A stretch of 64,000 bases of DNA from a phage (GCA_024614665.1 GCA_024614665.1_4861.1), one strand, 5' to 3'; counted from the first letter of the stretch, positions 34,980 through 52,497 are shown. Translations and numbers: made by a program. Notes: generated from the letters alone by a model not told the origin.

Positions 34980-36833
34980 TTACAGTTTGAAGTTGCTCAG
35001 AGACACGCCCAGACCGAAATCGGAACCGCTTGCAGACAGGCCGTTGCCAGACAGCGTGAAGTCTTCCCCACCGTTGTTGAAGAACAGAGAGGTCGCCATC
35101 GTGTTGTAGGCATTTACACCAGTCATAGACCAGGTGCAGTTGTTACGGACGAAGTCCAGCAGGCATTTACCGAAGATCGGGTTGATAGCCATATCCAGAG
35201 ATTCACCGGTAGCTTGCGGTGCTTTGGATGCGAACAGAGAAGCGGCCAGTTTCAGCATGTAGATACGCTGCTGACGCTCGTTCAGTTCACGGTGGCTGTA
35301 GGACTGTGCGTTCAGGTAGCTATAGACGTCGTTCGCGTTATCACCCAGTTTGGTAACAACGGAAATCAGGTCCATATCCTGGAAGCTGCGTTTCTGTGCA
35401 GTACCGGTGTAAACACCGGAAACAGTCGGTACGGCTGCTTTCACGATGTGGCTGCAATGGATGGTACCATTGAAGGCATCGCCCAGCTGTGCTTTCAGTG
35501 CAGAAGCAAATACTGCAGTGAAGCTGGTCGCTGCAACAACTTCGCCGTTCTGATCACGCGGGGACATGGAATTCAGAATAGCGAGCAGCTGTTTCAGAGA
35601 GTTGTCGTAACCGACCGCAATTTCAGACAGCATAGTAGACAGACCACCCAGGCCGTTACCGGCACGATGGCTAACTACCAGTGCTGCTTCACGCGGTGCG
35701 AACATATCCAGGCAACCTTCGATAGCTTCACGGCTACCGTCGATTTTGGATACATCAGGACGAGCGTCAGCACCCCAGGACAGGTATTCTGCCACACGGG
35801 AGAACTTGCGATCTTGTTTGTTCAGGCGTTTCACAAACAGGTCACGCCAGCCACCGATTGCCGCGATTTCTGCAAATGCAGCCAGCAGCAGCAGTTGACG
35901 TTCATACGGTGCCATTGCACCTTCAGTTTGAGAATCGACCAGACTTACTACGATTTCAGCCTGCAGCTGTTTCAGGTCGTAGACGCCGTTAACGACAGGT
36001 TTCTGACCGGTGAAACGCATATTGACGAAACCGGTACCGGATACACGCGGATACACCTGTACCTGATTGGTGTCCAGCAGAGTCGGAGTGGCATCGGTTA
36101 CGTTGCTTGGGCTGTGCTCAACGGTGATTGCGAAATCAGCACGCTGTGCGTGGCCGTTAGCATCCACAACCGCGCCATCTTCCAGCGGCATTACTGAGGC
36201 CTGATAACGGTCATGCTTACGCAGGTTCAGTGTACCCAGGTAGCCTGCGATACGACCGAAGATACCCATCATCATCTGACCCATCAGGGTACGTGCCCAC
36301 TCAGCATCCAGAACTTTACCCAGGTCTGGTACGGAGTTGATGATCATGAAGTTCGCATTGGTCAGACCATGCGCTTCCATGATGTTTTTCTGTACTACTG
36401 CCAGCACGTCTTTGTTGAACAGTTCAGTGATGGTGTAGTAGTCTTCCTGGCCGTTGTTGGTAGTTTCTTTCAGACGCAGAGACTGACCGCGTTCAAAGAA
36501 GATGATACCGTACAGCCAGTGGCCCTGCCATTGGCCTGCGACGTACGCCGCGGAACCCATTTCGTTACCCACGCCGACGATGGTGCCCCAGCGGAATGCG
36601 TTGAGGTATTCGTTGCTTTTCTTCAGCTCATCCAGGAGGTTGGTGAAGTGCATTGCATAAGTGCTGATGTTGCGGATGCCAAATGCGTTATCGAATTGGC
36701 TGACAGTAGAAGTACCCGGCACAGCAGTTTGCACTTTTACAGTCTCGTTGCCCAGACCGCCCAGTGGTGCGGTGTCTTGAGTCTGAGTGTTGTTCTGCTG
36801 AGCGTTGTTGTTAGAGTCAACGATTTTTACCAT
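34980..36833 (-). CDS. abundant 617-aa protein (major capsid protein or nuclear-shell protein candidate)
   Basis: Strong highly-expressed-type codon bias, AAGGAA SD, motif upstream, terminator downstream. Confidence 0.75.
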   Translation of the reverse strand: MVKIVDSNNNAQQNNTQTQDTAPLGGLGNETVKVQTAVPGTSTVSQFDNAFGIRNISTYAMHFTNLLDELKKSNEYLNAFRWGTIVGVGNEMGSAAYVAGQWQGHWLYGIIFFERGQSLRLKETTNNGQEDYYTITELFNKDVLAVVQKNIMEAHGLTNANFMIINSVPDLGKVLDAEWARTLMGQMMMGIFGRIAGYLGTLNLRKHDRYQASVMPLEDGAVVDANGHAQRADFAITVEHSPSNVTDATPTLLDTNQVQVYPRVSGTGFVNMRFTGQKPVVNGVYDLKQLQAEIVVSLVDSQTEGAMAPYERQLLLLAAFAEIAAIGGWRDLFVKRLNKQDRKFSRVAEYLSWGADARPDVSKIDGSREAIEGCLDMFAPREAALVVSHRAGNGLGGLSTMLSEIAVGYDNSLKQLLAILNSMSPRDQNGEVVAATSFTAVFASALKAQLGDAFNGTIHCSHIVKAAVPTVSGVYTGTAQKRSFQDMDLISVVTKLGDNANDVYSYLNAQSYSHRELNERQQRIYMLKLAASLFASKAPQATGESLDMAINPIFGKCLLDFVRNNCTWSMTGVNAYNTMATSLFFNNGGEDFTLSGNGLSASGSDFGLGVSLSNFKL

Positions 36834-36870
36834 TTTAAATATTCCTTAATAGTGATTGCAATCATAGTTC

Positions 36871-36885
36871 GGTTCGCAGAGATAA
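36871..36885. promoter_or_regulatory. palindromic motif AGATAATATCTGCCT
   Basis: 38 bp upstream of start of the abundant 617-aa protein gene. Confidence 0.5.
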
Positions 36886-36972
36886 TATCTGCCTGTAATT
36901 TCATGGAATGCAAGTATGCCGTCGCTTACTTACAAGGCACATAGTCCAGACATTTCTCAGGAACTGTCACAT

Positions 36973-36987
36973 AGATAATATCAATCT
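36973..36987. promoter_or_regulatory. palindromic motif AGATAATATCAATCT
   Basis: 53 bp upstream of plus-strand start 37040. Confidence 0.5.
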
Positions 36988-37039
36988 GAGATATTTTTGA
37001 CTGTGACTGACTTCCTATGTGGAATCTAAGGAGTCTGCC

Positions 37040-38778: not shown

Positions 38779-41058
38779 TTACTCCTCCGCTTCTTCCCCA
38801 TCTTCTTCCTCTCCATCACGTTCAGATTTCTTAACGTACTCACCACTACCTAATTCTTCCTTGACGGAATCTACAGACTCACCGTAGTAATCCGAAAGCA
38901 GACGAGTTCTGTTCTTGTCCATCATGAACACACCCAGACATTCCAGAATGTGATAGTAAGGTTCTACTGTGGAGAATGCGCTTCGACGTGTGTCTGCAGC
39001 ATCAATCAGCTCCGGCGGAATACCGAAGTTTTCCACCAGGAACTCTGGCAGTATCAGAGTGCGATAGGTACGATAGTTGTTTTCTTCGAACCACCGTGTT
39101 GCGGTGGTCTTAATCATCGGGTCTTTAATGTTTTCCAGCCACTCTTTAACGGCTGTTTTGTTCTCCAGGTTTACCGGAAGTTTCACGGCGTCATAAGGCG
39201 GTTCGTCCAGGTAGCCGTACTTCGGTCCAAAGATAGCGTTGTACATGCGGTGGTAATGGTAACTCTTTTCATCATCTTCAGAGTACGCACTACGGTCTTT
39301 GACGTTGGTTGTTTTCAGGTAGCCTGCTTTACCAGCGCGAATAGAATCCACCACAACGTGCTCAATTGCAGCAACCTTTTCCAGCAGAGGCAGAATCTTA
39401 ATCTTGTCACCACGTGCCACGATCTCACAGAGTTCTTTAATCGTGCGTTTGAACTCTTTCATGACCACCGGAGGAATGTTCGACGTACGTAAAGACACGC
39501 CCTTAACTTCTAACTCAGGGTCAGACTTCAACTGCCCTTCCTGGCCAGTGATGATGGAGAAATAGTGTTTTGCTTTCGTGGTTAACGCAAAGGAGTCGAA
39601 CTTAAATTCGTTCTTCATTGCGTACAAAAACAGACGCTCTTTCGCCACACCGATATTCGCCGACATACTCGCCATCAGATGACGTAAGTGCTGGGTTGCG
39701 ATATAAATCATCGCATCCGATACGCGCGTAGCTTCACGACCGTAATGTTGACCGGTATACCACTGCGCCCACCACTGTGCAGTCATCATCGTGGAGTCGG
39801 TATCAGATACCACGCCAACACGACGAACCACGTCAGGCATCCTGGCAATGTTGATTGGCAGGTTTTTGGTGGTCAGGATATTACGAATCAAGCACGCGTA
39901 CTTACCGATGGTTTTCTGCAGATACACAGCTGAGCGAATCAGCTCTTTGTATTTTTCCTGCTTATCCCACGGTTCCGCTTTGTTCGTGTTTTCGTCTTTG
40001 AGTTTAACGTCAGAGAACGACTTACCTAATGGCACGATATCAGTACGGAACTGCGAGATAATGATCTGCATGTCACCGTCGATAGAGCGCTCAGCAGCAT
40101 CCCAATCAGTGATCTCGTCTTCCATCTCCTCGGCAATCAGCGCACCGATAAATCCACGCATGAATTCATCGTTATATTTCGCCAGGTGGTAGAAGTCACC
40201 CATGTAGACAAACGCTGCACGTACCAGCGGGCTACAATTACCGACGTAGTGACGAATGAACTCCACCCCTTCCTCGTTACGGAAGTAAAACTCTGCAGAG
40301 TACATAACCACTTCCATAACCTCGTCCACAGTTGGGTAGTGGAGGTTATAGAGTTCCATACACTTCTTGAACTCCGCAAAGTTAGTCAGTGTACCGATAG
40401 AGAGTAGGTGGTCGATGACACGAGACGGCGTGTCGTAGTGACGATTACCGCCCAGTAGTCGTTCGTTGCCCGCATTACCGAATGATGTAGCTGTACGGCA
40501 GGTTGACGTCAATACAGAGTGTGAAGACTGGTTAAAGATTACCGTGTACGGTGATGAGAATGCACCCGACATCCCGTTGTTCAACGTCTTAACAGCGTTC
40601 TGTTCGTTCTTTTTGTTAATACGTAAAACTTCGTTTCCTGCAGCACCGGCTGCATACATCTCTTTCTTAACCACCGCACGCTTACGCACGTTCTCTGCCG
40701 TAAATTCAGCAAGCTTAGAACGCTTGACGTGTTCCGGCAAATAGAAAGTCAACGACGGTGCAGAAATGATCTGCTTATCAATCACTGTACGGAACAGTTT
40801 ATCTACCGTGGTGTATTTTTCTTCGCGATCGCCGGTCTTTTGATTGCGCACCCACATCTTACACACGGGGAATTCGTGTACTAACTCACCACCAGGTTGG
40901 AACATTTCTTCGACCTGCTGTCGACAGAACTCCAAAGAATATTTCCCGTTGGTGACGGTATGAATGTAGAGCGCCAGTTGTTCGTAGTACGCATCGATAA
41001 CGTCAATGTCGCGATGATACTCGTCTTGACTAAGACGAAATGGTGAATTGTAGTCCAC
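38779..41058 (-). CDS. polymerase-like protein (possible family-B DNA polymerase catalytic part)
   Basis: VVSDTDS (motif C-like), KTLNNGMSGAF (motif B-like), KAKHY (KxY-like); acidic C-terminal tail. Confidence 0.5.
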   Translation of the reverse strand: MDYNSPFRLSQDEYHRDIDVIDAYYEQLALYIHTVTNGKYSLEFCRQQVEEMFQPGGELVHEFPVCKMWVRNQKTGDREEKYTTVDKLFRTVIDKQIISAPSLTFYLPEHVKRSKLAEFTAENVRKRAVVKKEMYAAGAAGNEVLRINKKNEQNAVKTLNNGMSGAFSSPYTVIFNQSSHSVLTSTCRTATSFGNAGNERLLGGNRHYDTPSRVIDHLLSIGTLTNFAEFKKCMELYNLHYPTVDEVMEVVMYSAEFYFRNEEGVEFIRHYVGNCSPLVRAAFVYMGDFYHLAKYNDEFMRGFIGALIAEEMEDEITDWDAAERSIDGDMQIIISQFRTDIVPLGKSFSDVKLKDENTNKAEPWDKQEKYKELIRSAVYLQKTIGKYACLIRNILTTKNLPINIARMPDVVRRVGVVSDTDSTMMTAQWWAQWYTGQHYGREATRVSDAMIYIATQHLRHLMASMSANIGVAKERLFLYAMKNEFKFDSFALTTKAKHYFSIITGQEGQLKSDPELEVKGVSLRTSNIPPVVMKEFKRTIKELCEIVARGDKIKILPLLEKVAAIEHVVVDSIRAGKAGYLKTTNVKDRSAYSEDDEKSYHYHRMYNAIFGPKYGYLDEPPYDAVKLPVNLENKTAVKEWLENIKDPMIKTTATRWFEENNYRTYRTLILPEFLVENFGIPPELIDAADTRRSAFSTVEPYYHILECLGVFMMDKNRTRLLSDYYGESVDSVKEELGSGEYVKKSERDGEEEDGEEAEE

Positions 41059-41104
41059 GTCTGGCCCCTTGGTTTTTACTCAGCTATAAGACTTGCGGGA
41101 TACG

Positions 41105-41142
41105 TGAAAAAAGAAAAAAAATAACCCACTCCGAAGAGTGGG
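41105..41142 (-). terminator. intrinsic terminator
   Basis: Hairpin CCCACTC-CGAA-GAGTGGG, T-run on minus strand. Confidence 0.65.
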
Positions 41143-41148
41143 CTTACT

Positions 41149-41559
41149 TTAACCGGCAATACTCTCAACGATTTCAAAATCGACATCATTGAAACCGTTG
41201 GCAGCCAGGGCGCGCTTAAGGTCGTCAATCTCCTGTTTGTTATCCAGGGTGACGGTAAAGCGCACTTTCGTGTTTTCGATAATCTGAACATCACGAATCC
41301 AGGCATCAGCAGCGACTTTGGGTTTGCCATCAACACCTTTAAAAATCAGATACGTGTATTTGTTCACGTTATCTTCTGGCTGAGAAACAATGGAAGAGTA
41401 GATATTCTTCTGCTCCGCCATCACATCCATATAGCTTTTGGCCATTTCATAGCCAACGCCGGTTGCCAGAATAATTACACGCGTCTCTTGCCCTTTCAAA
41501 GGGGTGTCGTAAACAATGTTAACTTTTTGCCCAGCGACCAGTGTGCGTAAATCGAACAT
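41149..41559 (-). CDS. hypothetical protein
   Basis: Member of a 9-gene minus-strand operon with overlapping stop/start codons. Confidence 0.6.
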   Translation of the reverse strand: MFDLRTLVAGQKVNIVYDTPLKGQETRVIILATGVGYEMAKSYMDVMAEQKNIYSSIVSQPEDNVNKYTYLIFKGVDGKPKVAADAWIRDVQIIENTKVRFTVTLDNKQEIDDLKRALAANGFNDVDFEIVESIAG

Positions 41560-42158
41560 TATTCCTCCTCAGGAACATCAATAAGCAGCCTCATATCCAA
41601 AGCATTGGTTAACGGTGTCTTCGGGAAGTCCACCTTCAGAACCAACGTACGGATAGCGCCATTATGCGCCTCTAAGAACATCTTCACCGGCTCAACATAA
41701 TGCGCCATAACTGCCTCCGTTACGGCGGTCGCCATTAGATCCAACGTATAGTGCTTGAGCGTGGCCCAGTGTGAGCTGTCTTGCTCTTTGTACATCAACG
41801 CTAAATCTAACAATGGTGTCAGCCCGTTAAAATGTGACTCAGTGCTGGCTTCCATTGCAACATTAAACTTCCACCGACGGTACTCGTCAGTCAGTAACGT
41901 AAAGAAGTCGTGCAAGAACGTAAGGTCGGTGCGAGCCAACATGCAACGAAACTCGTACGTGTAGCTGGTCAGCGTTTCACGTATAAGTTCGTGCATCTCG
42001 TCCTGGTCCAATTCTTTTACAGGTATCTCCACGGTGATACGCGGTAGGCGGACTACGGTGTCAACCACCAAATCCAAAAACCGCATACCGTCCGGAAGAT
42101 ACCCCACGACCCCCAAGTCCACATTAATCAAGTGGTTGGCGATCACCTTGTAGATCAT
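41559..42158 (-). CDS. hypothetical protein
   Basis: Operon member, start/stop overlap. Confidence 0.6.
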   Translation of the reverse strand: MIYKVIANHLINVDLGVVGYLPDGMRFLDLVVDTVVRLPRITVEIPVKELDQDEMHELIRETLTSYTYEFRCMLARTDLTFLHDFFTLLTDEYRRWKFNVAMEASTESHFNGLTPLLDLALMYKEQDSSHWATLKHYTLDLMATAVTEAVMAHYVEPVKMFLEAHNGAIRTLVLKVDFPKTPLTNALDMRLLIDVPEEE

Positions 42159-42167
42159 TCGTACTCC

Positions 42168-42599
42168 TTAACATTCAACACAGATGAGTGCGTTGCCAAT
42201 TTCATTCATAAGGAGTGAAACCTTTGTCTTTTTTGCTCCGTCTTCTGGAGTCAAGCCAGCCATGCCCCACACACGTTCTATCACGGAAAGGATTTCATAG
42301 AACCGAACTTCATCCTTAATCCCACTGCTCATGTTGTAGCAGTTTAGAGGCAGTACCTTTTCAGTACCCCACATCCCGCGCAACTGTTCCAGTATCAACG
42401 CAGGGTCTGGGGGAATAAAAGTAAGAAAGTTCTCACCCTTACCTAGCCCATTAACAATAGAACGTACCGTTAATTCGGCGTAACTGGCCAGAAACAAATA
42501 AGCGACAGCGGGCTCGATCTCGCTAGTATCAGCAATCTCGGCCCGTGCCAACAACGACTCATATTTGAAGACTTCGCCTATGGTCATGTACAGTTTCAT
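42168..42599 (-). CDS. hypothetical protein
   Basis: Operon member. Confidence 0.6.
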   Translation of the reverse strand: MKLYMTIGEVFKYESLLARAEIADTSEIEPAVAYLFLASYAELTVRSIVNGLGKGENFLTFIPPDPALILEQLRGMWGTEKVLPLNCYNMSSGIKDEVRFYEILSVIERVWGMAGLTPEDGAKKTKVSLLMNEIGNALICVEC

Positions 42600-43084
42600 T
42601 CGCAGATTAACACCACATCGTTAAAACTATCACCTACATACGTTTGATATCGCCCCGGATACAGCGACTCTATCAGTCCAGCAAAACCAGTTAAGTTTGT
42701 TAACTCTTCGACCAGCAAACTTACTGCAGCGCCGAAGGCTGCTTGATGTTGTTCGGACGAACCTTGTGCTGCCAGAAACGTCGTATCGACGGACGTTTCC
42801 TTAGCGAACTGGTCAACGGACAGACCATCGGTCACCAGCTCCCAATTGCCCAGAGGTTCAAGCGTGTCTTCCTGTAACAAATCAACCATCGTCGAAGGGT
42901 CACGAGTTTTCACACCGATGATATACGCAAACGCAAAACGTTGATAAAAATCACGTATCTGTGTTTCATCAATCTCCAGGTTACTGGCTTCCAGTACACG
43001 CAATGCCGCTTCACGAACATGCTCGTAAAACCGAGTCGCGCTATATTGGTTCGCAATATCCGCCACATCAAACAGAACGCTCAT
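42596..43084 (-). CDS. hypothetical protein
   Basis: Operon member, 4-nt overlap. Confidence 0.6.
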   Translation of the reverse strand: MSVLFDVADIANQYSATRFYEHVREAALRVLEASNLEIDETQIRDFYQRFAFAYIIGVKTRDPSTMVDLLQEDTLEPLGNWELVTDGLSVDQFAKETSVDTTFLAAQGSSEQHQAAFGAAVSLLVEELTNLTGFAGLIESLYPGRYQTYVGDSFNDVVLICE

Positions 43085-43590
43085 ACACGACCTCCGAGAT
43101 TACCGATAAGCAAATCGATAACAGGCAGAAGTTGTGGGGTGATTCGCTCGTACGCTTCCTGGCTGGCAAACTGTGGGAATTTATCACCACCATTATAGTC
43201 CAGTAAGAATTCGACATCCGCCGGATTATGCATTGTGTATTGTGCACCGACCCAACGACCGTAGTGAGTAAACCAATAAGGAGACTGCGCTACGGCAGTC
43301 ATATACGCTCGGCCGATGTTTTGAATTGCAGTGCCGTAGGTGATTACTTGCTCATTTTCCAGCACAACGCCGTGTGCATTCAGTGTACGAGAAACAAACC
43401 CAAAGGTGTTGTTCATCATAAACTTTAACTCACTACCAATGGTTCCACGTTCCACGAAGCTCATGGCGGTATTGATTATCGAGTTCAAATCGTCATTCAC
43501 TTCGCGGAGCACATCGTTTGGCGAAAACTCCGTTAACGGCCCAGCCAATAACTGATAGCCGGGGATATAAAAATGAGATCGCTCAATCAT
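43081..43590 (-). CDS. hypothetical protein
   Basis: Operon member, 4-nt overlap. Confidence 0.6.
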   Translation of the reverse strand: MIERSHFYIPGYQLLAGPLTEFSPNDVLREVNDDLNSIINTAMSFVERGTIGSELKFMMNNTFGFVSRTLNAHGVVLENEQVITYGTAIQNIGRAYMTAVAQSPYWFTHYGRWVGAQYTMHNPADVEFLLDYNGGDKFPQFASQEAYERITPQLLPVIDLLIGNLGGRV

Positions 43591-43990
43591 TGTAAGTAAC
43601 CCCTGTAGTCAACATTTTCCAAACACCGTCTCCTACATGCCAGAGGAGAAAGTCGGATTGTGGTAAATAAGTCATGTCCTCGTCGATTGCTTGCCAGATG
43701 CAATCGGTGTCCCGTATCAACAACTCAAATCGACAAAGAGCCCAATATTTTGCCGATGTGGTTGGAGTAATGATTGGGTTATCGTGAACATACTCCATAA
43801 AGAACTGGCGTATCATGCTATCGATAACGCCATATTTTTTCCGCAGAACATGCAACCGAACAATTTGCTCGATATAGTCGTCAAGCTCTACCGCAGCATC
43901 CTGGTAATCGATGCCGAGATTCTCTTTGACGAGAGCGGTGAGTCGGCAAGTCAATCGCACGAACTCAGTATAAACCGTCATCATAGACAT
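43583..43990 (-). CDS. hypothetical protein
   Basis: Operon member. Confidence 0.6.
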   Translation of the reverse strand: MSMMTVYTEFVRLTCRLTALVKENLGIDYQDAAVELDDYIEQIVRLHVLRKKYGVIDSMIRQFFMEYVHDNPIITPTTSAKYWALCRFELLIRDTDCIWQAIDEDMTYLPQSDFLLWHVGDGVWKMLTTGVTYND

Positions 43991-44432
43991 CTGTTACCTT
44001 ACGTGGAATGAAACGGAGAATTCTGTCTGCCTGATTATAATGATACCGATACCCTTTCGGAGGAATGCCCATTTCCTCACAGATAGCACGATGAACGTGT
44101 GACGCGATGGTGTGGATTTCCCGCGAATGACTTCTGGGACGATAACACCTAACAATCAGTGAGACTGTTTCTGTGTCCCACGCACCGTGTTCTGTAAATG
44201 TCGGAATCATGTATTCGAGCATACAGAGAATGATATGCTTCAACCCCGTGTTAACATCATACATGCTGAACATGATGTCGCTGGGGTCATTCAATATCCT
44301 GACGTATGCCGTCGAGGCAATGTGATCGATCAGTACCAGACGGACGATATCGTTTGTTTGGGAAGCATTGGCGGTAGTGGATGAATCTGATGTCTTCTCC
44401 AATTTGTAACTCCAGAGATTGCACCTGCCCAC
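43965..44432 (-). CDS. hypothetical protein
   Basis: Operon member; start uncertain (internal ATG at 44273 possible). Confidence 0.55.
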   Translation of the reverse strand: MGRCNLWSYKLEKTSDSSTTANASQTNDIVRLVLIDHIASTAYVRILNDPSDIMFSMYDVNTGLKHIILCMLEYMIPTFTEHGAWDTETVSLIVRCYRPRSHSREIHTIASHVHRAICEEMGIPPKGYRYHYNQADRILRFIPRKVTDVYDDGLY

Positions 44433-44850
44433 GACGGGTTATGTGTGGTTCCAGTTTAATCGTCGCATAACGATTAAACGGGTGTTTGGCGGCCTTCACA
44501 GCATTCTCCACAAGCGCATGGATACTGTCCAGGAAACTGTTGTAACAGTCTTCGAATGCCAATCCGATAAGATATTCGGTAGAACGTAAAATCGCTACGG
44601 TCTCCTTCGTCTTATTAACCGGAGTACCCAAACCGCCGCTGGAAACGTGTGTACGTTCCACAGGAACTGTTTTCGGTGGAAGTATGATCTGGTCAGCCAC
44701 CAACATCATCGTGAGATTAAAAGCGTCAGTATAAGGTTCCAGCAAAGGTTCCATACGTGCATTAGGCATTTCCGGAACGGAGTAAAAGATATCTTCGAGC
44801 GCAGTGTGTAACAGTTGTACAGTTAACATCTCGCGTTCTTTTTGGCTCAT
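44287..44850 (-). CDS. hypothetical protein
   Basis: Start set at ATG forming ATGA overlap with upstream stop. Confidence 0.55.
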   Translation of the reverse strand: MSQKEREMLTVQLLHTALEDIFYSVPEMPNARMEPLLEPYTDAFNLTMMLVADQIILPPKTVPVERTHVSSGGLGTPVNKTKETVAILRSTEYLIGLAFEDCYNSFLDSIHALVENAVKAAKHPFNRYATIKLEPHITRRGQVQSLELQIGEDIRFIHYRQCFPNKRYRPSGTDRSHCLDGIRQDIE

Positions 44851-45167
44851 CCGCAGAGCGGTAGCGTACTGGGAAGCATCGACAGGCCCCCAGAAGCTAG
44901 AATGAACCGCAGCTGGTTCGAGGTATATTCTGACCACGTTTGCACAACTCCATTTTTGTAATGAAAGGGATAGCTATGGTTTCGGCCCAACGCCGAAATA
45001 ACAAACCACGCTTCCGTGCCAAAATAACTTTCGGCAATGCGTATCCACTCGCGTGGAAACTCATGCGTGCCGGGATAAATGACTTCTTGTATCGCGCACA
45101 GTAACGTGTCCGCAGGCACAATCTGTTCATTTGTCCCTGGAGAGAAATTAAAGAACATGCGCGTCAT
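44847..45167 (-). CDS. hypothetical protein
   Basis: First gene of operon; motif 31 bp upstream. Confidence 0.6.
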   Translation of the reverse strand: MTRMFFNFSPGTNEQIVPADTLLCAIQEVIYPGTHEFPREWIRIAESYFGTEAWFVISALGRNHSYPFHYKNGVVQTWSEYTSNQLRFILASGGLSMLPSTLPLCG

Positions 45168-45197
45168 CGAGAAATGCTCCTTAAGGATAATTCACGA

Positions 45198-45212
45198 AGA
45201 TAATATCTATGC
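45198..45212. promoter_or_regulatory. palindromic motif AGATAATATCTATGC
   Basis: 31 bp upstream of 9-gene operon start 45167. Confidence 0.5.
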
Positions 45213-45330
45213 AAAATTTCTTCGAGTATGGTGCGCACATAAAGGTCGTAAAACGTATTTTAATGTCAGGTAATGGGATAGCATTACCCGATGGTATGAG
45301 TTGTCCTACGAGCTTCATAGGAGCCTTAGA

Positions 45331-46143
45331 ATGAATGTTATCGACTACTGCCTGCGTAAAATCAGACAGCATATCCCTGCCCCGATTCTACAGGCGGCTT
45401 TTGTTCCAGAAAACCTCAAGTTACTGGGAATTGCAAGCTCTGTAGATAACGAAATTCAACAACGCGTTATTCGTGAAATTCTGGTCCCTGAAATCTCCAG
45501 AATGGGGCAGTATCAAGAAGTAGATTTGCAAGGTGTTCCTTGGGATAACGACACGCAAGATTATTTCAGTCGCGTGTACTATCTCGACGACATCAAAACA
45601 GGCGGTCGCCCTATTCTGGACGCCCATATCTCTGTAACACCTGTTGCCGGGCAGGCGTACACCATGCCACCTGCCGGTTCGTATCTGGACGGTGCAACCT
45701 CCGGTGTACTGGCGTCCACTCAACAAGTGGTTGATAGCCAATCGGCGATGCCACGTATCGCCTCGCCAGAAGTTGAGGTGCTCGGTCCGAATACCATTCG
45801 TATCAAAGACCCAGGCATGTTCGTTTACTCTACCAAACTCGTGGTGAAGTACGAACTGTCCCAGGAGATGAACGAAATCAAACCAGCATTCTATCCGGTT
45901 GTAGGTGAGCTGGCAGTCATGGCTGTTAAGCAATATATCTACAACACCATGATCTTCGACATGGACTCTGGTAAACTGGAAAACGGTATGGAGTTCGGTG
46001 CCTTCAGAAACGTTATTGAAGGTTACTCGGACGCAGGTCAAATGTTCGAAGACACCTTGCCGAAAATGCAGCGTTGCCTGGTCCACAACGACAACATCGG
46101 AAACCGTTGGAACTACATGAACGGTGGACGCTTCAAGTCGTAA
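45331..46143 (+). CDS. hypothetical protein
   Basis: Start set at ATG with AGGAG SD; bidirectional terminator downstream. Confidence 0.65.
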   Translation: MNVIDYCLRKIRQHIPAPILQAAFVPENLKLLGIASSVDNEIQQRVIREILVPEISRMGQYQEVDLQGVPWDNDTQDYFSRVYYLDDIKTGGRPILDAHISVTPVAGQAYTMPPAGSYLDGATSGVLASTQQVVDSQSAMPRIASPEVEVLGPNTIRIKDPGMFVYSTKLVVKYELSQEMNEIKPAFYPVVGELAVMAVKQYIYNTMIFDMDSGKLENGMEFGAFRNVIEGYSDAGQMFEDTLPKMQRCLVHNDNIGNRWNYMNGGRFKS

Positions 46144-47072: not shown

Positions 47073-47104
47073 GGTAACTTCCTCCTATAAGATTCTGAGG
47101 CAGT

Positions 47105-47143
47105 CGTGAAAAAAGAAAAAAAAGAGGGAACCGAAGTTCCCTC
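47105..47143 (-). terminator. intrinsic terminator
   Basis: Hairpin GAGGGAAC-CGAA-GTTCCCTC, T-run on minus strand. Confidence 0.65.
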
Positions 47144-51418: not shown

Positions 51419-52388
51419 GATTTAATTCTCCGTTTGGTTTATCATACCTCACGCAGAATCTGTAAATTTTAATCAGCCAGGTACCGTCGTTTCTCAACGG
51501 GAGTACCCACCCCTCTCGTCTGTTCCGAGCCGCCAAGATTTGGACCAACCTCCTCGTCGGAGTTATCCCCCAAGTCTGCGGTTCTACACGCAGACCCCTT
51601 TTCGACGCAACGCCGAATTCGAATCAGTTTTGGCCCGACGCCAGAGCGGAATCAGCGATAACTATCGGAGGTAAGTTCAACGACGTCTCTCCGCTGCCCA
51701 GTCCTCTGGCGCTGCCACGGTCAACTCGGATTTTGTCATGGGTGCGCAGTCGACTTTCTCGACACTCTCGCAAACCGAACTACGCCCGACGTAGCACCGT
51801 CGGCAGGTCGGTTATTTACCGAGTACCTGAATGGGTGGTGATTGTCGGAATCCCCGCCGACGCTCACCGGTTCTGTTCCACGGCGAAAGTTTTCCAGAAC
51901 ATAATAAATCACGCAGTGTTAGATTGCGCTTTGTCGAAGACACCACGGTAGGTATTTTCGAAAAAGCGTCCTGGGTAACAATCCCAGGACTTGGAGCCCT
52001 AGCGTGCAGGGTTTAAAAGTGATTGGACCATTGGCGCGGTCAATCGCTATTCGCATATAACAACAAACTCACGTAATCAAAAAATTACCGGCTCGAGGCG
52101 TAGGCGTCCAGGAGCCGGTGAGTCACACAGCAGTGAGTCCCTCTGCGGGGATTTTCGTGGAGCTTGTCGTTGGAATAAAAATCCGTCCCCGGACGGGTTG
52201 GTGGTGTGGGTCGACTTGTCAGAGTCTGCCGTCCAGGGAGGCGGCCACCGAAGCTATGGGTTTTGGACATCGAGTGGTGGTCTGAACACACGATAGGGAA
52301 ACCACGTAAAAAATACACAGGGTACCCAAACCAGGACGTCTGTCCGATCACGATCTCTTAATAAGGATCACGCGCGCGCCCGCACGCG

Positions 52389-52497
52389 TTTTAAGATCTT
52401 AATATATTAATATATTTATTTATATAAATAATTATAATAATTAAATATAATACCTAAAGGTATTATTATATTTAATATTATTATATATTTTAAAAGA
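52389..52497. repeat. 109-bp almost pure AT island with internal palindromes, flanked by alternating CG tracts and ATAAGGA direct repeats
   Basis: Perfect 16-bp palindrome TTATTTATATAAATAA at 52416-52431; CG tracts 52369-52388 and 52511-52532; ATAAGGA at 52361-52367 and 52533-52539. Confidence 0.7.

Follow-up and report, generated by a model that had tools for sequence, protein, structure and literature searches.

The closest described counterpart of the locus studied here lies in the nucleus-forming phage phiKZ, in which a run of small same-strand genes separates orf42 from the DNA polymerase gene orf50. By calling of open reading frames (ORFs), this run comprises nine members: an unannotated ORF, gp43, gp44, gp44.1/45, gp45, gp46, gp47, gp48, and gp49. 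In the 2026 structural atlas of phiKZ, gp42 was assigned as the dodecameric head-to-tail adaptor and gp49 was placed in the baseplate, where twelve gp49 dimers form the hexagonal ring HR1. Kokontis et al. reported that orf47 (Imp2), itself imported, is needed for nuclear import of Nlp1, and that orf48 (Imp4) is needed for import of host TopA; both factors were described as conserved only among Pseudomonas phiKZ-like phages. Phage transposon-insertion sequencing (TnSeq) of phiKZ recovered zero insertions in orf42, 43, 47, 48, 49, and 50, and 6, 11, and 9 insertions in orf44, orf45, and orf46, respectively; the phiKZ slot mixes insertion-intolerant and insertion-tolerant genes. We analysed a 64,000-nucleotide (nt) stretch of phage DNA (GCA_024614665.1), referred to below as the window, in which positions 41149-45167 had been predicted from the sequence alone to hold a translationally coupled operon of nine small proteins, possibly involved in host takeover, anti-defence, or the virion interior.

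The region 41000-45400 was 98-99% identical, over its full length, to Salmonella phages SaP7, SPLA3, and SPN3US and to about 30 Seoulvirus relatives; judged from these matches, the window is a Salmonella jumbo phage of the SPN3US/SaP7 type. ORF calling recovered the nine consecutive minus-strand ORFs of the original prediction at 41149-45167, and they correspond to the annotated genes SPN3US_0009 to SPN3US_0017, i.e. gp9-gp17 in the original SPN3US numbering, all of which carry the annotation 'hypothetical protein'. Our preferred reading, which we hold tentatively and at slightly worse than even chances as a whole, is that the block represents, in the SPN3US clade, a transcription unit found at one fixed position in all sampled nucleus-forming phages, with gp9-gp16 as accessories to the nucleus-based cycle and gp17 as a baseplate protein. 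Its safest form is anatomical: one conserved, translationally coupled, and probably early unit, which yields eight proteins that remain in the cell and, from its last gene, a baseplate protein. The phage, its genes, and the family identity of gp17 are already public or contained in recent papers. What is added here is the reading of gp17, the conservation of position across the family, a tentative link between gp10 and phiKZ gp43, and a negative but informative structural result for gp16.

To compare the surroundings of the block, loci were found with the SH3 protein (the gp17 family) and the polymerase as anchors, and IMG/VR loci were found by polymerase alignment. Every Chimalliviridae genome examined had the same layout: an opposite-strand adaptor gene, PhuZ in some clades, 6-10 small same-strand genes, and the SH3 gene, followed by a hairpin, the polymerase gene, an opposite-strand head-protein gene, the chimallin gene, and the gene for an RNA-polymerase beta subunit. 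The arrangement was seen in phiKZ, BRkr, Noxifer, Phabio, BUCT660, Simmy50, Centimanus, RisingSun, Miami, pVa-21, and Ralstonia FLC1-1B, and in 80 IMG/VR loci. In the window, the gene upstream of the unit is gp8 (45331-46143, plus strand), which belongs to DUF7484, matched PHIKZ042 in the PDB at an E-value of 3.3e-25, and is present in the published SPN3US virion proteome with the label head. Downstream lies gp18 (38779-41058), a 759-residue ORF for the divergent family-B DNA polymerase (PolB), and beyond it, on the opposite strand, gp21, a head protein according to the virion proteome. In several other clades (loci L015, L016, L018, L019, and L020) the small-gene block is separated from the adaptor gene by PhuZ, which is missing from the corresponding place in the window (45168-45330), in agreement with the report that Asesino, a phage of the same clade, forms a nucleus without PhuZ.

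Within the clade the block is conserved gene by gene. The nine genes occur in the same order in the genera Seoulvirus, Erskinevirus, Machinavirus, Wellingtonvirus, and Derbicusvirus, the order of all nine being kept in SPAsTU, phiEaH2/Asesino, Machina, Kwan/Wellington, and CR5/Derbicus and in IMG/VR contigs of the same clade; on this comparative evidence, all nine ORFs are genuine genes. The stop and start codons overlap or nearly abut, as had been predicted: the eight junctions from gp9 to gp17 measure -4, -8, -26, -8, -4, -4, +9, and -1 nt, that is, overlaps of 1-26 nt or a 9-nt gap, and the sole spacer (+9 nt, between gp15 and gp16) bears the sequence AAGGAG. Overlaps or very short spacers, the signature of translational coupling, thus run along the whole block. 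The nine-gene run is the longest tight run in the window, the runners-up having 5 and 4 genes. Tight junctions are frequent in this genome, with 21 of the 37 same-strand junctions in the window at 10 nt or less, and for this reason compactness by itself is only mildly unusual and counts as weak evidence. The colinear conservation of nine genes across five genera is the stronger evidence.

The predicted sizes of 106-216 residues needed correction, since the 216- and 155-residue minus-strand ORFs were over-extended; the real range is about 100-199 residues. The over-extension bears on the starts. For gp10, the most likely start, from sequence comparison, is the ATG of the ATGA overlap with the gp9 stop, at 44850 (187 residues); the same start is annotated in SaP7 and SPAsTU. 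For gp11, N-terminal alignment placed the ancestral start at position 44339, where SPAsTU, Asesino, and CR5 have ATG, Machina and Kwan have GTG, and this phage has CTG; the true start of gp11 is therefore uncertain. Candidates are TTG at 44294, ATG at 44273, and ATG at 44264. The gene is annotated with a 99-residue product in SPN3US and left unannotated in SaP7. A programmed frameshift fusing gp10 and gp11 was considered and set aside, as gp11 is in the +1 frame rather than the classic -1 and the relatives have ordinary start codons at this place.

The last gene of the unit, gp17 (41149..41559, minus strand; 136 residues), gave the clearest identification. None of the nine proteins had been thought to show a recognisable motif, which does not hold for gp17: it matched the SH3-fold family PF20287 of Pfam with an E-value of 3.2e-35 (120.9 bits against a cut-off of 25), residues 8-124 aligning with profile positions 2-122 of 122. 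For comparison across the family, 1176 proteins from about 90 loci were clustered, and iterative hidden Markov models (HMMs) were run and searched with 130 models. In the clustering at BLAST level the SH3 protein alone spanned the family, with 84 members, and an iterative HMM begun from the SPN3US clade recruited the SH3 protein in 17 of the 17 sampled phages. PDB entries in the family are PHIKZ049 (9xqs) and an 'SH3 fold domain-containing protein' (11lx, 36za). A 13-sequence profile of the gp17 family, built without Pseudomonas phages, matched them over nearly the full length, with E-values of 2.6e-23 for 9xqs and 4.4e-25 for 11lx/36za; the single gp17 sequence gave no match to PHIKZ049 in a phmmer search, identity being only about 18%. 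By mass spectrometry of the SPN3US virion, gp17 was found as a 15.3-kDa protein with 6 unique peptides and 48% coverage, carrying no 'head' label. By profile similarity, gp17 is a homologue of PHIKZ049, the protein of baseplate ring HR1. The homology to baseplate or tail modules that the original prediction had regarded as evidence against itself was found for gp17 only, i.e. for one of the nine genes.

This identification bears on the possibility that the block encodes accessories of the replication machinery, with gp17 as a polymerase-associated SH3 subunit and gp9-gp16 as further replisome factors. In all genomes examined the block is the immediate upstream neighbour of the divergent PolB, and the Pfam name of PF20287 is 'SH3 fold domain associated with phage DNA polymerases' (SH3DP). 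Iyer et al. described a small SH3-fold protein (e.g. phiKZ AAL82950) encoded upstream of the divergent PolB, raised as a question whether it is a polymerase subunit, and pointed out that these phages are without a recognisable clamp and primase; the requirement of phiKZ Imp4 for the import of the host topoisomerase would also fit. PF20287 was defined from gene neighbourhood, which is the one support for an association with the polymerase, and a terminator is conserved between the SH3 gene and the polymerase gene. The Pfam name implies a polymerase partner, whereas the phiKZ structures give no support for one. We consider the replisome explanation quite improbable. Because PHIKZ049 sits in ring HR1 and gp17 is in the virion, the homology argues that gp17 should be read as a baseplate ring protein and that the label 'polymerase-associated' is misleading.

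We then considered where the other eight products act. That they might be virion-internal or ejected proteins, as the original prediction suggested, would suit a phage like SPN3US, which packages many small proteins, and would suit their position among gp8, gp17, and gp21, all three of which are virion proteins. The SPN3US proteome nevertheless includes these three from the locus and none of gp9-gp16, which are missing from the list of proteins identified in purified SPN3US with 100% probability even though the 15.3-kDa gp17 and a 7-kDa protein were detected. Nor does the main text of the phiKZ atlas, which covers 40 proteins, mention gp43, gp45, gp46, gp47, or gp48 as virion components. A place inside the virion is therefore contradicted by proteomics and almost certainly wrong; by the published virion proteome, gp9-gp16 are non-virion proteins. 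All nine proteins of the block are acidic, with isoelectric points (pI) of 4.2-6.4, and not hydrophobic, and gp9-gp16 are small and predicted to be soluble.

Database searches returned little for these eight proteins. gp9-gp16 had no match in Pfam or NCBIfam, and PHROGs placed all nine proteins of the block in small families without assigned function. Sequence searches of the PDB gave no match for the gp10 family profile, gp13, or gp15. Three word-indexed homologue searches yielded 11-16 proteins each, which limited the depth of the alignments accordingly. The iterative HMMs reached phiKZ-group families only for gp10 and gp17, and supercluster profiles were of no help; among gp9 and gp11-gp16, gp13 is the exception in being detectable outside the clade, in Vibrio phage pVa-21. 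An origin of gp9-gp16 from one duplicated family was rejected, all hhalign probabilities among them being below 6%.

The eight proteins also diverge rapidly. Between the window and CR5, identity was 69% for the polymerase, 53% for gp8, 46% for gp17, and 44% for chimallin, compared with 35% for gp13, 31% for gp14, 29% for gp9, 28% for gp11, 25% for gp10, 20% for gp15 and for gp16, and 18% for gp12. In the comparison with SPAsTU, gp12 retained 48% identity, as against 92% for the polymerase. gp9-gp16 diverge faster than the polymerase, the adaptor, and, for most of them, chimallin.

Small size, acidity, fast evolution, and restriction to a clade are features to be expected if gp9-gp16 were host-takeover or anti-defence proteins, as the original prediction had proposed; they would then disable host factors or immunity and stand only incidentally beside structural and replication genes. 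A probable early promoter, the lack of homologues with known function, the gp16 fold without neighbours, and the three phiKZ block genes that tolerate insertions, as accessory genes often do, all agree with such a role. Arms-race cargo, however, tends to come and go, whereas gene number and order here are stable across genera and, by position, across the family. Furthermore, relatives of gp10 occur throughout the family, the phiKZ counterpart of gp10 being free of insertions, and the characterised members of the phiKZ slot are import factors rather than anti-defence proteins. No positive evidence for host takeover or anti-defence was found; we regard this explanation as unlikely, if still with a real chance.

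The relatives of gp10 (44287..44850, minus strand), which shares an ATGA overlap with gp9, were revealed by a chain of HMM matches. The cluster containing gp10 (cluster 4) matched a cluster of pVa-21/L039 proteins (cluster 74) at 1.2e-5, the latter was matched by cluster 14 at 1.0e-4 (1176 proteins, 130 models), and cluster 14 matched cluster 13, which contains phiKZ gp43, at 2.3e-10. A MAFFT alignment of 32 diverse members showed that D153 and R155 of gp10 are invariant, within the motif G-x-D-[IYW]-R-x-x-x-[YW]; gp10 has the form G-E-D-I-R-x-x-x-Y with its invariant D-x-R. The family holds rank 5-7 upstream of the SH3 gene in 79 members. Direct hhalign comparison of the gp10 and gp43 families was weak, with probabilities of 22% over 132 columns and 11.5% over 62 columns. 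The AlphaFold2 (AF2) model of gp10 had a predicted local distance difference test (pLDDT) score of 60.4, too poor for fold inference, and its Foldseek search of BFVD returned proteins of the same clade only, the best match outside being a Serratia jumbo-phage protein at an E-value of 0.056. From these sequence relationships, gp10 is probably, though not provenly, a member of the phiKZ gp43 family; phiKZ gp43 has a C-terminal extension of about 180 residues, which gp10 does not have. We also observed that the gp16 motif DEYRRWKF and the gp10 motif GEDIRFIHY are both invariant acidic-aromatic-Arg motifs; they lie at different positions and no profile similarity was detected between the two proteins, and the likeness is probably a coincidence.

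The two genes immediately upstream of gp17 invite comparison with the phiKZ import factors. gp16 (41559..42158, minus strand; 199 residues), which is preceded by AAGGAG 9 nt past the gp15 stop, and gp15 (42168..42599, minus strand; 143 residues), which has an ATGA overlap with gp14, are the first and second genes upstream of the SH3 gene, the ranks that Imp4 and Imp2 have in phiKZ. Like Imp2 and Imp4, they are small, non-virion, and clade-restricted; their sizes are different, with 143 and 199 residues (gp15/gp16) as opposed to 178 and 127 residues (Imp2/Imp4). Profile similarity was absent for both pairs, gp15 and gp16 scoring at most 1% by hhalign against the Imp4 and Imp2 superclusters (s7 and s9) and showing no HMM link, and fold similarity was absent for the gp16 model. 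Structure predictions covered gp10 and gp16 only, and the gp16 model was good, with a pLDDT of 82.3 and a predicted template modelling (pTM) score of 0.78. It shows a four-stranded sheet, formed from both termini and packed on long helices, and the invariant E-x-R-x-W lies within the DEYRRWKF motif. Foldseek against BFVD gave three significant matches, all of them to the protein's own family with template modelling (TM) scores of 0.83-0.88, and the gp16 model is therefore supported. When the gp16 profile was run by HMMER against all of 1.84 billion representatives, it retrieved only 20 proteins, all of the same family, and a profile enlarged with distant metagenomic members still gave no link to other families. 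As far as tested, gp16 appears, from its model, to be a clade-restricted protein whose fold has no recognisable neighbour.

A side observation concerns gp16 and gp17 in the LR5359xx records of GenBank (SPFM5, 6, 8, 10, 12, 15, and 20), whose homologues, matching window positions 41149-42158, look broken. The tblastn matches are split in 4-6 pieces, and the deposited proteins of 132-185 residues have partial identity; assembly or basecalling frameshifts are the likely explanation.

Transcription signals were found at both ends of the unit. The motif copy predicted at the operon head is present: an exact AGATATTATCT occupies 45198-45208 on the minus strand, 30 nt before the gp9 ATG, as part of the putative promoter motif CATAGATATTATCT (45198..45210, minus strand) in the divergent intergenic region shared with gp8. 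Exact copies of AGATATTATCT number five in the window, at 22871, 26614, 28030, 36880, and 45198, all on the minus strand. With up to two mismatches there were 37 matches, compared with 12.2 ± 4.3 in shuffled sequences, and no shuffle reached 37. Gene starts, among them that of the chimallin gene (34980-36833), lie downstream of four of the exact copies and of the near-exact copies at 36973 and 48165. The fifth exact copy (26614-26624, minus strand) lies within a 544-residue gene (26361-27995), about 266 nt ahead of the gene that follows, and may be an internal promoter. In the divergent region between the chimallin gene and the head gene gp21 (36834-37018), two near-palindromic copies, at 36880 and 36973, provide one for each gene; the single copy in the gp8/gp9 region may serve both directions.

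SPAsTU, Asesino, Machina, and Kwan likewise carry the CATAGATATTATCT motif, and CR5 a variant of it, about 30 nt ahead of the ATG of their gp9 homologue, and the intergenic DNA around it is otherwise diverged among these relatives. At the other end, the predicted terminator was located by a terminator scan at 41144-41123, with a 9-bp stem, a UUCG loop, and eight T residues; this strong intrinsic terminator, AGCCCACTC-UUCG-GAGTGGGTT plus T8 (41113..41144, minus strand), closes the unit ahead of the DNA polymerase gene. A hairpin with T residues and an unrelated stem sequence follows the SH3 gene in SPAsTU, Asesino, Machina, CR5, Kwan, phiKZ, BRkr, BUCT660, Simmy50, and RisingSun, and the hairpin at this position in Miami is an annotated terminator. 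As judged by this comparison, both transcription signals, motif and terminator, are under selection. No further motif copy with one mismatch or fewer was found inside the block, and the other terminator-like matches there were without a proper T-run. One promoter motif at the head and one terminator at the end, with none detected internally, make the predicted layout of a single unit, and from it we infer that the nine genes are co-transcribed.

A review of jumbo-phage RNA polymerases describes an AT-rich motif of about 10 nt, conserved ahead of presumed early operons, as the early promoter of the virion RNA polymerase, and differential RNA sequencing (dRNA-seq) of phiKZ found the early-promoter motif ahead of the chimallin gene. 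Because the motif found here also precedes the chimallin gene, as in phiKZ, it is, by analogy, most likely an early promoter read by the virion RNA polymerase. A scan of the unit head detected no sigma-70-type promoter, which is expected because the phage uses its own polymerases. We also noted an element of another kind, consisting of a T-run, CACG, N13-14, and TCTTATAG, of which the window contains exactly two copies (41084-41112 and 47085-47114, both minus strand). Both copies come straight after a UUCG-loop terminator, the first ahead of the DNA polymerase gene and the second ahead of gp6. In Machina, Kwan, and Serratia phage BUCT660, too, a TATAG(A/C)TGA element is found ahead of the polymerase gene; the TCTTATAG/TATAG(A/C)TGA element is a candidate middle or late promoter.

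The signals and the last junction are both relevant to the proposal that gp9-gp16, co-expressed with gp17, help to assemble the baseplate or neck as chaperones or scaffolds that do not enter the virion. gp17 is a baseplate protein coupled to gp16 by a TAATG overlap, the divergent neighbour gp8 is the head-tail adaptor, and absence from the virion, as seen for gp9-gp16, is typical of assembly chaperones. Set against this, two phiKZ genes beside the gp17 homologue are tied genetically to nuclear import, the early gene for chimallin has the same putative promoter, and adjacency weighs little in these genomes, in which structural genes are scattered. We judge assembly factors to be a rather unlikely explanation.

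An accessory role in the nucleus-based cycle is favoured because the slot is fixed in the core locus beside the polymerase and chimallin genes, because gp10 probably matches a phiKZ gene without transposon insertions, and because the sole characterised occupants of the slot are import factors. On this preferred reading, the unit occupies the slot between the adaptor gene gp8 (phiKZ gp42) and the polymerase gene gp18 (phiKZ gp50), with the nuclear-shell gene a few genes away. Transcription would start at AGATATTATCT, 30 nt before gp9, early in infection and by the injected virion RNA polymerase, and would stop at the conserved hairpin after gp17. Where stop and start codons overlap, ribosomes would be able to move on from one gene to the next, so that the products would be made in a co-ordinated way. 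gp17 would go to the baseplate as a structural protein, and gp9-gp16 would act as accessory factors inside the infected cell, filling the slots held in phiKZ by gp43-gp48, including the cargo-specific import factors Imp2 and Imp4.

Several observations weigh against the preferred reading. Neither sequence nor profile comparison connected gp9 or gp11-gp16 with a phiKZ-group family, and hhalign probabilities stayed below 10% throughout. The gp10-gp43 link consists of an HMM chain and a short invariant motif, the direct profiles being weak and the gp10 model poor, and the gp16 model found nothing in BFVD that resembles Imp4, Imp2, or any other protein outside its own family. The same position does not prove the same function, and phiKZ orf44, orf45, and orf46 tolerate insertions. 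Finally, a baseplate gene is an odd end for a unit with a putative early promoter; the motif may not be strictly early, gp17 may have an unrecognised internal late promoter, or gp17 may be made early.

A role of gp9-gp16 specifically in import, suggested by analogy with phiKZ, has in our estimate a low probability. Equally doubtful is the more elaborate proposal that gp11-gp16 are the enterobacterial-clade counterparts of phiKZ gp44-gp48-type factors, import adaptors included, and that the locus is a universal, positionally conserved 'import-specificity cassette'. Quickly diverging adaptors in each clade would then license phage and host proteins, such as topoisomerase, for entry into the nucleus; the members would have diverged or been replaced in situ beyond recognition by sequence and fold, and Imp2/Imp4 would be one instance. 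If true, the proposal would explain how import specificity diversifies among nucleus-forming phages.

The remaining members of the unit, all on the minus strand, are as follows in brief. gp9 (44847..45167; 106 residues; phrog_9874, function unassigned) is the first gene, has the Shine-Dalgarno sequence AAGGAG ahead of it, and is colinear in the relatives, identity falling from 75% in SPAsTU to 29% in CR5. gp11 (43965..44294; about 99-124 residues, depending on its uncertain start; phrog_8134) is conserved in the relatives. gp12 (43583..43990; 132-135 residues) is the fastest-evolving member and gp13 (43081..43590; 169 residues) the best conserved among gp9-gp16, and gp14 (42596..43084; 162 residues; pI 4.2) has an ATGA overlap with gp13. 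Elsewhere in the window, an extremely AT-rich stretch of about 75 nt (ATATAATAATACC...TTAATATATTAAG) lies at ~52352-52470, upstream of a small ORF and, by coordinate arithmetic, near the point where the SPN3US GenBank record begins and ends; tRNA-like sequences occur at ~48.1-50.9 kb.

These results have consequences for annotation and for the study of the phage nucleus. The label 'polymerase-associated SH3 protein' can be corrected to baseplate protein, and gp17 can be annotated so in SPN3US-like phages. The small genes between the adaptor and polymerase genes are recognised as a positionally conserved unit across nucleus-forming phages, and gp10 is tentatively tied to phiKZ gp43, an insertion-free gene without assigned function. 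In a genetically tractable Salmonella phage, the eight non-virion proteins become candidates for nucleus-related functions, including protein import.

Compared with the phiKZ orf43-orf49 block, the unit occupies the same slot and shares a similar build, with about nine overlapping same-strand small genes, the SH3 gene last, a hairpin, and the divergent PolB. Six or seven of the nine proteins are without detectable similarity to phiKZ-group proteins, whereas the last gene is clearly homologous and the second (gp10 versus gp43) probably so; PhuZ, present in or near the locus in other clades, is absent here. PHIKZ049 and gp17 are alike in size, gene position, and full-length profile match. PHIKZ049 has been placed in the phiKZ baseplate by structure, whereas gp17, a virion protein outside the head, would be placed in the SPN3US baseplate by homology. 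The early 'host-takeover' genes of T4 and comparable early clusters of large virulent phages resemble the unit, being short, dense, fast-diverging ORFs behind an early promoter. In contrast to such T4-type clusters, the unit described here has a gene number and order that are stable across genera, has a structural gene as its last member, and belongs to the core locus of the family.

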